A stretch of 64,000 nt of DNA, taken from Escherichia phage A6-6. The notes beneath the pieces were generated by a model. The model saw only the letters and a list, made by a program, of their open reading frames with translations. It was not told the DNA's origin and searched no databases. The stretch is taken from the sequence record PQ510734.1. The stretch is one strand, 5' to 3'. A program made the position numbers and the translations under genes. The stretch's first letter is position 1; each line of letters starts with the position of its first letter. Positions 15,316 through 19,284 of the stretch are shown here, piece after piece.

Positions 15316-16206
15316 ATGTCAGTAGCAATTAATAATGTCAATGCAGTAATTAAATCTTTAGTTAATAAAAAAATGATGAATGAATGGACTGTATTTCGTC
15401 GTGGAGAGCCAGATAAATTTTTTCATAGATTTAACCCAACTTTGGATTTGAATGTTATTGACAGAGATGTTCATGCTGAAATTTTAGATAAATTTAAAGT
15501 TGATATTGGGTTTGGATTAGAAAAACATTTACAGCGAACAAACGGGTCTGGAATGAGTTTATCTAATCGCATTATGAAAGCCCTTAATAAAATTGGAGCA
15601 TTGTCTCGCATTAACGCGAGTGAAATCCTTCGTAATTATAATAAAGGATATGACCTTTATGGTCGACTGATGCCAAAATTATCATTCGATCAAATGATCG
15701 CAGATTTGTGGGAAAATCAACGACGACTATTAGCATTAGGCGCTCGATTAGCTAAAGGTCTAGATAAACAAATGATTTTTAAGACCAATAATACAGAAGA
15801 CCTTAAATGCTTTAAATTTAGTATTCGTGGCGATGATTATTACATCAGAGCTCACTCTACAGATTATGTTAATATGGGGCATCATCTCTGTTTAGCTTTT
15901 GAAGTTTTAAAAGAAGCTGGAACATTAGAATATTCATCTGGTGAAAAATGCCCTATTGGTTCAAGCTGTATTTTAATTTATCGCCCGGATGAATCCAGTT
16001 CAACTAAATTGCCTACGAAACCTGTACCAGTTCGTAGTAACGAAAAACATTCTGAACAAATTGATTATTTTAATAAGCAGATTGAAGAGCTGAATATTTC
16101 TATTCAACAATATGACGATGAAATTTTCAGACTATCTGGATTGAGTAGTAAAGCTAAATCTGAGCGTGAAAAGTTAATTAAAATCGTTGATTTACTTAAA
16201 TCTTAA
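15316..16206 (+). CDS. paralog-family protein A (variable N-domain, C-terminal coiled coil)
   Basis: ATG 15316 with GAGG RBS; shares internal motif and C-terminal heptad region with the next three ORFs. Confidence 0.5.
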   Translation: MSVAINNVNAVIKSLVNKKMMNEWTVFRRGEPDKFFHRFNPTLDLNVIDRDVHAEILDKFKVDIGFGLEKHLQRTNGSGMSLSNRIMKALNKIGALSRINASEILRNYNKGYDLYGRLMPKLSFDQMIADLWENQRRLLALGARLAKGLDKQMIFKTNNTEDLKCFKFSIRGDDYYIRAHSTDYVNMGHHLCLAFEVLKEAGTLEYSSGEKCPIGSSCILIYRPDESSSTKLPTKPVPVRSNEKHSEQIDYFNKQIEELNISIQQYDDEIFRLSGLSSKAKSEREKLIKIVDLLKS

Positions 16207-16214
16207 GGAATACC

Positions 16215-17243
16215 ATGAAAACTCGTTCTCAAATTGAAGATATGGTTCGTAATGCCAGCTATACTCGTGATGTTATGACATTTTTGTGTGAAAATAATTT
16301 AGACCCTGATAAAGTTAATCGTGTTATTCATCACTTTAAGTATACGAATAGCAGTGAATGGGTGCGTAATTTTAGTAAAGCAGGATATATTACACAAATG
16401 ACGGCCCGTGAGCAGCTCACCGATTTCTGTAAAACTATTGATTATAAAAATCCTTTATTTGTTCAAGGCGTTGGTCAAAGTAAGGTCGATTTATCATCTG
16501 GATTTTTCAATCCAAATCATTATCGTATTGAATGGAGATTTATTGCTCTATTCCGTAAACAATTAAAGCAAATTTTATCAACTGCGAGTCGATTAAAAGG
16601 TTCTGATATTAACTTAAAGAATCTGAAATTTGATGGTTATACTCTTCAGATGGAAGTAAGACCATTAAAAGAAAATAATAGAACTGCACGAATTAGCTTT
16701 AAACCTAACACAAAAAATTCTCTTTCAATTTGTGAATGCCTTAAATCACAGTTGACAGAAGCATTTAAGTATATGGATGTTGTTGCTAGTGTTCAGTCTA
16801 AGATTTTACCTCGTTTTGAGCGATTTAAATTAGACACAACAACATATGAACTTGATATGATCGTTTCATTTAAATACGATTTTTTGAGAAAGGACGAAGT
16901 CCCGCAAGAGAAAAAGCAAGAAGTGCAAGATAAATTAAATTTAAATTTATCCAATTACTCATCAAACGATCCTAAATTTTGGATGTATAGTTCAGGTAAT
17001 AAGGATGCATGGAAATTCAATAAAGTGAATTTTCTTCCTGTTGAAAATCCGAGTCTTAAACCTGTTGAAAAATGGCACGCGGATGCGATTGAGAAGTCTA
17101 TCAAGGCAGTAGATGATGAACTCGTTAAAGCAACTAATGAAGTGTTAGAAGCTGAAAAGATGCTAGAAAAAGCTCAAGAAAAAGTCAAAAATCTCACGAA
17201 GCAACGTTCTAAACTGAACAATGCACTAAATGCACTAAACTAG
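16215..17243 (+). CDS. paralog-family protein B
   Basis: 342 aa; motif FRKQLKQILSTASRLKGSD; coiled-coil tail. Confidence 0.5.
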   Translation: MKTRSQIEDMVRNASYTRDVMTFLCENNLDPDKVNRVIHHFKYTNSSEWVRNFSKAGYITQMTAREQLTDFCKTIDYKNPLFVQGVGQSKVDLSSGFFNPNHYRIEWRFIALFRKQLKQILSTASRLKGSDINLKNLKFDGYTLQMEVRPLKENNRTARISFKPNTKNSLSICECLKSQLTEAFKYMDVVASVQSKILPRFERFKLDTTTYELDMIVSFKYDFLRKDEVPQEKKQEVQDKLNLNLSNYSSNDPKFWMYSSGNKDAWKFNKVNFLPVENPSLKPVEKWHADAIEKSIKAVDDELVKATNEVLEAEKMLEKAQEKVKNLTKQRSKLNNALNALN

Positions 17244-17272
17244 TTTACTTCGCCACAAGGATGTGGTATAAT
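17244..17272 (+). promoter_or_regulatory. early promoter with ccacaaggatgtgg spacer hairpin
   Basis: gtttac 17244-17249, tggtataat ending 17272; identical spacer palindrome at 62372. Confidence 0.55.
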
Positions 17273-17300
17273 GTTCTTACTTTCTACTGAGGAGATTAAT

Positions 17301-18302
17301 ATGACTCGTAACGAATATATCAAATCATTCAATAGCGTTATTGATGATAAAGTTAAATCTATGTCTAGTCAGAATAGTGTTCTTTCTATTATCAATCAGT
17401 GGCTCAACAATACTGATGCAAGTATTGTTTCTTCCGGCAAATTTATTCATGAAGTTCATAAAATTTCTAGTTGCGAATATAAAGATGATATTAAGGAAAC
17501 CTTTAAAGGTTCTCGTCTTCTTTCATACTTAGTCAACAGAGATATTCTTAGTAAATTTGGGAAAGAAATTAAACGAACTAAAGATGTAGTAGGATATAAT
17601 TGGTTCGGTGATGTTAATTCTTATCATCTTAATAATAAAGAAGACCCTGAGAATATTTTTACTCGTCGTTGGATTAGTAATTTCAGACTTTTCAAGAAGC
17701 AACTTCTAAAATCAGCTTCTAAATTATGCTATGGTGATTATCGTCAAATTCATCCTTTGGCTTCTGATATGATTATCGTAAAAGAATATGAGCTTGATAA
17801 AAATAAAGTAGCTATTTTTGTGAATTATGGATTTTTTACACCAAACGCTAACCAAAAGAATATTAATAAATTTTTCTCAATTGCTAGCACTATAACTTAT
17901 CAATTAGAGGCGGCTTTGGGCTGTATGGAAACTGTAAAAAGTATTCATACATATCCTTTCAAAAATATGTGTGGTTGGGAAGGATATAAAATTATAATTA
18001 GCCTTCGTGAAGTGAAATGTGCGTACTCACCGACTGATAAAGAAATTTACCAACAAAAATATGAAGAAATTGTGAATACTCCTAAAGAAGAAACTACCCT
18101 TGAGGAACTAATGGAATGTCTTGACGATTCACCTGAACCGGTAGAAATTCGTCCAGAAGTTATTGCACTAGAAAAAGCTTATAAAGAAGTTCTAGAAATT
18201 TCTAATAAAGCGCAGAAAGAATATGAGCAGGCTAAAAGGATTTGGGAAGAATCTGTTAATCGCCTGGATCGTCTTGAACAAGCTTTACAGTTAATTAAGT
18301 AA
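17301..18302 (+). CDS. paralog-family protein C
   Basis: ATG 17301 with GAGGAG RBS; motif FKKQLLKSASKLCYGD; coiled-coil tail. Confidence 0.5.
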   Translation: MTRNEYIKSFNSVIDDKVKSMSSQNSVLSIINQWLNNTDASIVSSGKFIHEVHKISSCEYKDDIKETFKGSRLLSYLVNRDILSKFGKEIKRTKDVVGYNWFGDVNSYHLNNKEDPENIFTRRWISNFRLFKKQLLKSASKLCYGDYRQIHPLASDMIIVKEYELDKNKVAIFVNYGFFTPNANQKNINKFFSIASTITYQLEAALGCMETVKSIHTYPFKNMCGWEGYKIIISLREVKCAYSPTDKEIYQQKYEEIVNTPKEETTLEELMECLDDSPEPVEIRPEVIALEKAYKEVLEISNKAQKEYEQAKRIWEESVNRLDRLEQALQLIK

Positions 18303-18354
18303 TTTAAAGCCAAGGATGGCTCGGAGTATAAATCATTAACCAAGTGAGAAGAAC

Positions 18355-19284
18355 ATGAAAACTCGTAAACATTATATTGATTATTTTGACAGTCTTATTA
18401 CTAAACACCGTAATTATCAGATCGGACACAGAGCAGTAATCAATAATATTCTTCGTGATTTCCTTCAATATGTTGGCCAGGAAAATCATATCTGTAAAGA
18501 TACTCAAAACGCCTATTCTCATTCATTGGGCAATTTGCTTGAATGGTTTAAACGTTCTCGTATGTTATCTTCTACTGTAGCTCGCGATAACATTAAAAAC
18601 TTTATGAAGCCGAGCTTCATTAAATCTGCAACATCTATAACCGATTTGGTTGAATTTACTATTGTTAACGATGTTAAAAAGACCCACTTGGCTGATTGGT
18701 TATCTACCATTCCTGAAACTAAATTTGCTGATAAATTTGCTTGTCAATTCAATGACCAAGTGAATATGCTTTTTAAGCATGCTCGCAAACTATTTACTGC
18801 TGGTGATGACCGTACAAATACAGTTCATGTTAAGGATTGGGTTATTGCTGATGAAGTAACACACAAGCCAGGTGGTTCATCAGTGTTAATTAATATCCAG
18901 GTTCCTTATTATTACTCACGTAATCTTGGCACCATGAACTCTAAAGAAATTAATAAGCACAACAAAACTATTCGTTCGTTGTCTTATAAACTCCGCATGA
19001 TGTTAAAAATCATGGACGTAGTAGAAATGTATGACGAAATCGAAGATAATGGTTCAATGTTATACAGTTCACGTATTCTAATTAAACTGAAGAACCCTAA
19101 TACATATAAGACAGTTGTAAAAGAGCCTAAAGTAGAAAAGATTGATAACTTGAGCGAAGAACGTGAATATCTCAATGCTCGTTTGATTGAAGTTGAAGCC
19201 CAGATTGCCGAACACACCAAATTGTTAAAAGCTCTTAATGCAAAAGCAAATGGTTTACGTAATGCTATTGAGGTATTGAAATGA
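18355..19284 (+). CDS. paralog-family protein D
   Basis: 309 aa; N-terminus MKTRKHYIDYF resembles B (MKTRSQIEDM); motif FKHARKLFTAGDD; coiled-coil tail. Confidence 0.5.
   Translation: MKTRKHYIDYFDSLITKHRNYQIGHRAVINNILRDFLQYVGQENHICKDTQNAYSHSLGNLLEWFKRSRMLSSTVARDNIKNFMKPSFIKSATSITDLVEFTIVNDVKKTHLADWLSTIPETKFADKFACQFNDQVNMLFKHARKLFTAGDDRTNTVHVKDWVIADEVTHKPGGSSVLINIQVPYYYSRNLGTMNSKEINKHNKTIRSLSYKLRMMLKIMDVVEMYDEIEDNGSMLYSSRILIKLKNPNTYKTVVKEPKVEKIDNLSEEREYLNARLIEVEAQIAEHTKLLKALNAKANGLRNAIEVLK

Follow-up and report, generated by a model that had tools for sequence, protein, structure and literature searches.

The nrdC.6–nrdC.3 array of a T4-like phage: a diverged tandem family that includes the orthologue of the anti-Dsr1 gene nrdC.5

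The closest described counterpart of the locus reported here is the nrdC.5 gene of phage T4. In the work of Srikant et al. (eLife 2022; PMC9391042), T4 was evolved on toxIN cells and one clone no longer plated on ECOR17; deletion of dsr1 in ECOR17 restored plating of this evolved deletion clone, cloned dsr1 guarded MG1655 from it and plasmid-borne T4 nrdC.5, sufficient in trans, restored infection despite Dsr1. Dsr1 is a SIR2-domain protein in which a SIR2 NADase is joined to a TPR sensor. According to a 2026 preprint that used a Drexlerviridae phage, the sensor is triggered by the phage major capsid protein and is of a type common to Avs7 and about 9,000 other defence proteins (PMC12803255). 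Here, we describe a 64,000-nucleotide stretch of DNA from Escherichia phage A6-6 (PQ510734.1; the window), in which the nrdC.5 orthologue is one of four consecutive genes (15316–19284, + strand) that, judged from profile comparisons, are almost certainly paralogs.

Several other systems bear comparison with this array. DSAD1, a phage inhibitor of DSR2, likewise disables a SIR2-domain NADase and supplies a model in which a sensor/effector is blocked by direct binding (PMC10973363, PMC10981675, PMC11087589); it is an unrelated protein, and no sequence or fold similarity to the NrdC.3–NrdC.6 proteins was found. NrdC.5 was the only reported Dsr1 antagonist found in our search. T4 gp49.2, the product of a neighbouring gene that inhibits the OLD defence (PMC13096335), as well as TifA (acting on ToxN), Dmd (RnlA), AdfA (DarTG) and IPIII, are likewise early, non-essential and fast-evolving, and each neutralises a single defence and thereby widens the host range. 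They differ from the NrdC proteins in being unrelated, mostly small and single-copy, whereas the array consists of three or four paralogs of 300–340 amino acids. Closer still are single-copy genes of other T4-like phages, encoding proteins of 335 amino acids in Kanagawavirus IME523, 315 in Marfavirus Marfa (gp080) and 334 in Moonvirus Merlin (gp91). These share the locus (between nrdC.10, which encodes an AAA protein, and nrdC), the length, the motifs and a C-terminal KLxxAxxxLK with the array, but are present in one copy rather than four and are annotated as 'hypothetical protein'.

The array and its relationships

The window phage is a T4-like Tequatrovirus, and the strand shown runs in the direction of T4 transcription of these genes. 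A megablast search with window positions 15000–19700 matched 659 phage records with a top identity of 98%, and synteny with annotated records identifies the four neighbours on the + strand as the orthologues of T4 nrdC.6 (15316–16206; 296 amino acids), nrdC.5 (16215–17243; 342 amino acids), nrdC.4 (17301–18302; 333 amino acids) and nrdC.3 (18355–19284; 309 amino acids). The coordinates and lengths match exactly those of a preliminary description made from the sequence alone, which had not assigned the genes to any characterised T4 protein family; they are in fact annotated T4 open reading frames (ORFs) that belong to three existing Pfam and PHROGs families. Identity to the T4 protein is 97% for NrdC.6 (across residues 1–259), 95.6% for NrdC.5, 89% for NrdC.4 and only 61% for NrdC.3, which is of a non-T4 allele class. 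The array is preceded on its 5′ side by nrdC.10 to nrdC.7 and followed on its 3′ side by nrdC.2, nrdC.1, nrdC, pin, gene 49 and nrdD. Gaps of eight bases separate nrdC.6 from its upstream gene and nrdC.5 from nrdC.6, with which co-transcription with the upstream genes would fit, and the end of nrdC.3 shares four bases with the start of nrdC.2 (19281–19284).

The databases split the four proteins into Pfam families PF26899 (nrdC.6), PF23882 (domain of unknown function DUF7235; nrdC.5) and PF26897 (nrdC.4 and nrdC.3), and into PHROGs 2257, 2351 and 1435, all of 'unknown function'. NrdC.5, which occupies the same position as its T4 counterpart, matches PF23882 over its full length (429 bits, E 1.5e-128, against a gathering score of 30 bits), whereas nrdC.6, nrdC.4 and nrdC.3 fall below the threshold of this family, with no match at E <= 1. 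All matches of the nrdC.6 family search (105 of 105) carry PF26899, and all 98 matches of a joint nrdC.4 and nrdC.3 profile carry PF26897; membership of these two families is taken from precomputed assignments of close homologues. The corresponding PHROGs matches are to phrog_2257 (E 4e-152) for nrdC.6 and to phrog_1435 for nrdC.4 and nrdC.3 (E 3e-163 and 7e-117, respectively). Scans of Pfam, PHROGs, NCBIfam and PADLOC gave no function, the families' own DUF and PHROG entries being the only significant matches; PADLOC returned nothing but a coiled-coil-type match of nrdC.4 to BrxC (E 0.008, 12 bits), and a PDB sequence search with the three family profiles returned nothing relevant. Since the family is divided into three unrelated DUFs, the kinship described below is easily overlooked.

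BLASTP relates nrdC.4 to nrdC.3 (E 3e-9, 26% identity across 225 residues) and, marginally, nrdC.5 to nrdC.4 (E 0.07, colinear across 215 residues); nrdC.6 matches none of the other three. Family profiles were built from the database homologues of each gene, and pairs were compared by hhalign, which joins nrdC.4 and nrdC.3 with a probability of 98.3% (E 1.6e-14). When 1.8 billion representative proteins were searched exhaustively by HMMER using the joint nrdC.4 and nrdC.3 profile, 11 matched, all within T4-like phages, so that this family is very narrow; nrdC.5 and nrdC.6 were not recovered directly in the same search. One of the 11 matches, P0267, is a full-length protein of 315 amino acids from Klebsiella Marfa-like phages (E 7e-5 for the whole library). 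When the profile was extended with P0267 and P0260, the nrdC.5 family aligned with it at 96.7% (E 4e-10) over 249 columns, spanning residues 48–338, and the family of the single-copy Kanagawavirus (IME523) gene aligned with the nrdC.4/nrdC.3 profile at 94.9% (E 4e-8) over 246 columns.

The most diverged paralog, nrdC.6, is connected through such intermediates. Its hidden Markov model (HMM) matches the IME523 protein of 335 amino acids at 24 bits, from the central motif through the tail, and the reciprocal match of the IME523 HMM to nrdC.6 scores 19 bits. Compared with a merged profile of all other members, the nrdC.6 family aligns at 92% (E 6e-7) over 204 colinear columns. As a control for coiled-coil artefacts, the tails were cut off and the nrdC.6 head was rescored against 60 column shuffles; the tail-less head scores 39.7 (P 3e-5), compared with 14.3 ± 2.7 for the shuffles (maximum 24.5) and 17.8 for the reversed profile. 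Significant colinear profile–profile similarity thus extends over most of the length of the proposed NrdC.3–NrdC.6 superfamily with its single-copy relatives. In a 26-sequence superfamily alignment, pairwise identity among the four is 12–21% (12–20% for the other three with nrdC.5), and the position of the family in the genome is constant in every genus examined. The four genes are very old tandem duplicates of one ancestral gene confined to T4-like phages (Straboviridae).

Structural comparison was made with AlphaFold2 (AF2) models of nrdC.6 and nrdC.5. A Foldseek search of BFVD with the nrdC.6 model (mean predicted local distance difference test, pLDDT, 79.6) found uncharacterised proteins of 304–335 amino acids from seven other T4-like phages (E 5e-7 to 5e-4), in full-length alignments with template-modelling (TM) scores of 0.2–0.48. 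Two of these, identified by organism and length, are family members placed independently by profile, namely Merlin gp91 and the 335-residue protein of Enterobacter phage IME523; the latter is the top match and is the product of the single gene at the syntenic position. The nrdC.5 model gave only weak, low-TM matches in BFVD. In the searches made here, no match of the NrdC.3–NrdC.6 fold to any solved structure was found, and the fold is at present unassigned. A possible tyrosine-recombinase SAM-like domain at the N-terminus of nrdC.3 (residues 30–86) was rejected. Its matches, sought against Phage_int_SAM_1 and XerC/D models, are sub-threshold, with E 0.057 in Pfam and E 0.0017 in NCBIfam, the latter at 17.7 bits where the cut-off is 279; such a domain is matched by 15 of 63 family members (best E 0.051), and the family profile aligns with Escherichia coli XerD with a probability of 0.2%. 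Weak PHL-domain and DUF3905 matches were treated as noise.

Protein architecture

The superfamily alignment, together with the AF2 models of nrdC.6 and nrdC.5, points to one common plan for all four proteins. The N-terminal segment opens with M(K)TRxxYI in nrdC.5, nrdC.4, nrdC.3 and the Marfa relative; nrdC.6 differs, and the start of Merlin gp91 (MNKTKDD) resembles it only loosely. It is followed by motif 1, with the consensus F-K-x-S-R-L-L-S...A-R-D/E-x-L-x-x-F-G-K, which in nrdC.6 reads MKALNKIGALSRINASEILRNYNKG (15574–15648, + strand) and has its equivalents in the same alignment columns at 16362–16433 (nrdC.5), 17493–17564 (nrdC.4) and 18538–18609 (nrdC.3). Motif 2, with the consensus F...(I/L)L..(A/G)S(K/R)L..G(D), is located at 15709–15765 in nrdC.6 and at 16551–16607, 17682–17738 and 18748–18810 in the other three (all + strand). 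It corresponds to the mid-protein motif noted previously in the four proteins (RRLLALGARLAKGLD, KQILSTASRLKGSD, KQLLKSASKLCYGD and NMLFKHARKLFTAGDD), and these segments do occupy the same alignment columns. In both models motif 2 lies on a long helix just ahead of β-hairpins. Both motifs belong to a conserved helical region. Next comes a small β–β–α–β–β unit, in which the helix ends in the 'MDVV' block and has a pair of strands on either side. The 'MDVV' block, also noted previously, is aligned as YMDVV in nrdC.5, IMDVV in nrdC.3 and CMETV in nrdC.4, but is only weakly recognisable in nrdC.6.

The unit is followed by a linker of variable length and low model confidence, which we take to be disordered, and by a C-terminal helix that starts at a P-E-x-(V/I)-(P/A)-x-E segment. 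In both models the order is alike: a long helix, a pair of strands, a helix, a second pair of strands, the low-confidence linker and another long helix. The extreme C-terminus, (K/R)-L-x-x-A-(L/I)-x-x-L-(K/N), is found in every member examined, including those of Merlin, Marfa, IME523, Mosigvirus and Gaprivervirus. The helical tail spans 16042–16203 in nrdC.6, where it ends with KLIKIVDLLKS, and 17061–17240, 18153–18299 and 19141–19281 in nrdC.5, nrdC.4 and nrdC.3, respectively (+ strand). It is modelled as helix 283–341 in nrdC.5 and as helix–break–helix (243–272 and 278–295), rather than one long helix, in nrdC.6. The heptad-rich character ascribed to all four tails holds for nrdC.5 (about eight heptads) and nrdC.3, the scores of which are reached by 0 of 300 shuffles, but is marginal for nrdC.6 (about 6% of shuffles), and the best-scoring window of nrdC.4 lies outside the tail. 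Oligomerization via the C-terminal tail is plausible.

The preliminary description had pictured heads of about 250 residues, hard to recognise as related, on a shared tail. Homology is instead colinear from residue ∼50–75 to the C-terminus. What stands of this picture is a conserved tail and a variable stretch of 50–75 residues at the N-terminus, but most of the head shows homology, with the strongest conservation at its centre. The same distribution is seen among Tequatrovirus orthologues, which vary most in the first 50–75 residues and in the linker and least in the core and tail.

Copy number, alleles and selection

Copy number varies from one to four across the phages compared, as the preliminary description had proposed to check. 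Four family loci are present in Tequatrovirus (the window phage, T4, KMB39, JB75 and JEP6), three in Mosigvirus AlbertHofmann (nrdC.6-like, nrdC.5-like and nrdC.3-like) and in Gaprivervirus UPEC01 (nrdC.6-like, nrdC.5-like and nrdC.4-like), two in the Tequatrovirus Yersinia phage fPS-2 (nrdC.6 and nrdC.3, with nrdC.5 and nrdC.4 absent) and one each in Kanagawavirus (IME523 and PEi20), Marfavirus (Marfa) and Moonvirus (Merlin). All four genes are found in approximately 460–500 of about 500 Tequatrovirus records. Individual copies appear to be disrupted in some records: phiC600P9 has no nrdC.4 and a frameshift at codon 167 of nrdC.5, a frameshift near codon 260 detaches the last 37 residues of nrdC.6 in the T4 reference (NC_000866) and nrdC.4 contains two frameshifts in T2 (AP018813). 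In a 167 kb metagenomic contig (P0161), residues 146–274 of nrdC.5 (97% identical) are fused to residues 129–309 of nrdC.3 (93%), equivalent to joining window positions ∼16650–17036 to ∼18739–19284; the junction lies at non-homologous positions of the two paralogs and the fusion removes the end of nrdC.5, the whole of nrdC.4 and the start of nrdC.3.

Outside the genera listed above, Acinetobacter phage Acj61 carries two adjacent genes upstream of nrdC (12745–14765) that encode proteins of 304 and 330 amino acids with coiled-coil C-termini. Judged by organism and length, one of them appears to be BFVD entry E5E4A2, matched by the nrdC.6 model (Foldseek E 2e-4); profile support is weak (P 0.007–0.03). 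Should these genes belong to the family, its range, tandem duplication included, would extend to the subfamily Twarogvirinae. No family member was found near nrdC.10 in Aeromonas phage AhMtk13a.

Identity bands were derived from 50,697 phage records. The upstream gene nrdC.10 has at least 99% identity in 482 records; the bands are lower for nrdC.6 (mostly 95–99%), nrdC.5 (mostly 90–95%) and nrdC.4 (80–95%), and nrdC.3 falls into two classes of 95–99% and 60–80% identity (653 phage records). The window NrdC.3 is 61% identical to the protein of T4, T2 and JB75, whereas the flanking genes are 89–100% identical. At the DNA level the window nrdC.3 has 82–86% identity to the Mosigvirus copy, the flanks of which are not detectably similar, and this combination suggests allele replacement by recombination, with nrdC.3 exchanged between genera.

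Ratios of nonsynonymous to synonymous substitution rates (dN/dS) were calculated gene-wide for eight genomes by the Nei–Gojobori method. They are 0.13 for nrdC.6, 0.21 for nrdC.5, 0.24 for nrdC.4 and 0.32 for nrdC.3. The values for comparison are lower, at 0.02 (nrdC and gene 49), 0.06 (nrdC.8) and 0.12 (nrdC.10), and the dN of the four genes is fourfold to 80-fold above that of nrdC or gene 49. The four genes are faster-evolving or more relaxed than their neighbours, yet under net purifying selection.

Function, alternative explanations and significance

At 95.6% identity to T4 NrdC.5, the window nrdC.5 is very probably an anti-Dsr1 factor. The suggestion of the preliminary description that the four genes are anti-defence effectors fits nrdC.5 by experiment in T4 (PMC9391042), and would extend to the other three through their kinship: because T4 nrdC.5 switches off Dsr1 and the genes have a common ancestry, the three paralogs become candidate immune-evasion genes. 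The reading that we lean towards is that of a family of defence antagonists, demonstrated for one member and extrapolated to the others. Its products would be non-enzymatic binders made before the late proteins. NrdC.5 would most likely bind Dsr1 directly and prevent its triggering, or its hydrolysis of NAD+, before the late capsid trigger appears; this mechanism, modelled on DSAD1 and DSR2, is put forward tentatively. The tail probably oligomerizes the protein, which would raise its avidity for an oligomeric target, and the prediction for the remaining three paralogs is that they counter further defence proteins of the host. An anti-defence role for at least one of these three is possible, but we would not count on it. 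Different targets for each paralog would explain why diverged copies stand side by side and evolve faster than their neighbours, as well as the allele swaps between genera and the decay of copies in laboratory-passaged phages. A bolder version, which we consider rather unlikely as it stands, is that the proteins are modular sensor antagonists of a new fold, each paralog blocking a different defence protein, for example different clades of the Dsr1/Avs7 TPR sensor. The core and C-terminal helix would then form a common scaffold or oligomerization unit and the N-terminal segment and linker would confer target specificity.

An early-type σ70 promoter match (GTTTACT-N17-TGgTATAAT; 17244–17272, + strand) lies directly before nrdC.4, with 10 of 12 consensus positions and the TG extension in a promoter scan. 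The preliminary description had placed early-promoter-like elements before two of the four genes; the one before nrdC.4 is strong, but that before nrdC.3 (TTTAAA-N18-TATAAA; 18303–18332, + strand) is weak, was read from the sequence itself, failed the promoter scan rule and is doubtful. The positions of nrdC.3–nrdC.6 are, we take it, amid genes transcribed early in T4. From this knowledge of T4 and the one promoter match, we infer that the four genes are early here.

Several points weigh against a family of defence antagonists. Direct family-to-family hhalign comparisons that involve nrdC.6 or nrdC.5 have no significance, and the link to nrdC.6 needs intermediates. The model of nrdC.5 reaches a mean pLDDT of only 55, which is poor, and derives from a shallow alignment in which nearly all sequences are more than 80% identical, so that the structural comparison amounts to an order of secondary-structure elements and one good model. 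The arms-race signature of diversifying selection that had been expected does not show in whole-gene values, as all dN/dS ratios (0.13–0.32) are below 1. The near-universal presence of the genes in Tequatrovirus would suit a housekeeping-like accessory role just as well. For the capsid trigger of Dsr1, the demonstration used a Drexlerviridae phage, not T4, and our literature search found no functional account of nrdC.6, nrdC.4 or nrdC.3, nor any mention of their kinship with nrdC.5 or of their Pfam accessions. Binding to Dsr1, tail function and oligomerization are likewise proposals.

The most basic alternative denies common descent and regards the four as unrelated ORFans whose likeness is the convergent or compositional one of coiled-coil-rich proteins. 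The absence of direct BLASTP and family hhalign significance for nrdC.6 and nrdC.5 and the three separate Pfam and PHROGs families would be expected from it, and coiled-coil tails can inflate profile scores. The score of the nrdC.6 head persists without its tail, however, well above the shuffle maximum (39.7 against 24.5), and the alignments are colinear over 200–250 columns, in which three or four shared motifs follow one another in an unchanged order. The nrdC.6 model is linked to the single-copy relatives by independent structural matches, its secondary-structure order is identical to that of the nrdC.5 model and the genes keep the same genomic position in every genus examined. This alternative is largely refuted in this analysis and is very improbable. 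A more serious one, which we nevertheless consider doubtful, accepts the kinship and holds that only NrdC.5 antagonises defence, the others having drifted to unrelated early roles outside immunity (host takeover or modulation of the nucleoid or transcription, for instance) or being duplicates in slow decay with little function. An identity of 12–21% leaves room for a complete change of function, nrdC.6 and nrdC.4 are frameshifted or split in T4 and T2 records and nrdC.4 is missing from fPS-2 and phiC600P9. A genome-reduction study places nrdC.1–nrdC.6 among the removable T4 fragments, dispensable on laboratory hosts (PMC9825161), so the whole block can be lost, and experiments on nrdC.6, nrdC.4 and nrdC.3 were not found in our literature search. 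Against this alternative, all four genes are intact and under purifying selection, at dN/dS of 0.13–0.32, in most of the approximately 500 Tequatrovirus records; conservation of both the signature motifs and the C-terminal end motif across genera speaks for a common mode of action, and other anti-defence genes are nearby.

Two further explanations retain a link to Dsr1 and change the mode of action. The family might act on the phage side, by masking the capsid or late-protein trigger from Dsr1-type sensors or by shifting its timing. This would suit the triggering of Dsr1 and related sensors by the major capsid protein (PMC12803255), and a one-locus family in all T4-like genera could track a conserved phage partner. 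Stoichiometric masking of a late and extremely abundant capsid protein by the products of early genes, one of them with a promoter match, would be implausible, and a protein that partners a structural protein would be expected to be conserved, whereas this family diverges rapidly; we regard this explanation as improbable. Still less credible is the proposal that the proteins, instead of inhibiting the defence, are enzymes that mend NAD+ depletion, for example through re-synthesis of NAD+ or recycling of ADP-ribose. Dsr1 is thought to work via NAD+ depletion and phage pathways for NAD+ reconstitution are known, but the conserved positions of the family are mostly hydrophobic or on helix surfaces with no invariant catalytic-looking constellation, and about one third of each protein is linker and amphipathic helix.

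The surroundings of the array contain further features. The gp49.2 orthologue lies at 20555–20875, 1.3 kb downstream of the array, with 95% nucleotide identity to T4, which makes the neighbourhood rich in anti-defence genes. Directly after the array, nrdC.2 (19281–19649) encodes a zinc-ribbon protein with two CxxC pairs and weak Zn_ribbon matches; it is variable among Tequatroviruses (61–84% identity, with length differences and a dN/dS of 0.23) and is kept beside the family member in the single-copy loci of Merlin and Marfa, so that a functional link is possible. Upstream, nrdC.10 (12886–13854) encodes an AAA/STAND-like P-loop ATPase with sub-threshold Pfam matches; it is found in 1311 phage records, including those of jumbo phages and of Vibrio, Aeromonas and Acinetobacter phages, and its extreme conservation is in sharp contrast to the fast-evolving genes just downstream. 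A perfect 8 bp GC-rich hairpin (AGGGAGCC-TTCG-GGCTCCCT; 12511–12530) followed by a T run reads as a + strand intrinsic terminator just 3′ of the end of nrdC.11 in related phages. Between nrdC and the gp49.2 orthologue, positions 20160–20548 have no nucleotide similarity to T4, which has gene 49.3 there; this variable cassette contains overlapping ORFs at 20156–20371 (71 amino acids) and 20335–20544 (69 amino acids). The nrdD gene (21996–23813) is one uninterrupted ORF of 605 amino acids, while T4 nrdD is split by the I-TevII intron and fPS-2, JB75 and JEP6 carry homing endonuclease genes in or beside nrdD.

As annotated T4 ORFs, one of them with a published phenotype, these genes do not amount to a new system. 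The apparent novelty is that nrdC.6, nrdC.5, nrdC.4 and nrdC.3, together with the single-copy genes of Straboviridae, form one superfamily with a conserved architecture. A known anti-defence protein is thereby placed in a wider family, and three further candidates per phage emerge within some 4 kb of 'hypothetical' sequence in the best-studied phage, T4; the single-copy relatives likewise become anti-defence candidates. It is now defined which parts of the protein are conserved and which vary, and this can guide mutagenesis and structural work on Dsr1 inhibition. The finding is of an unsurprising kind, and offers a useful and testable lead for research on phage defence. Were the modular version true, the array would be an anti-defence island built by duplication, and its copy number (one to four), the two nrdC.3 allele classes and the inter-genus exchange would mirror the set of defences that the hosts carry. 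The locus provides an example of counter-defence genes diversifying via tandem duplication, allele replacement and loss.

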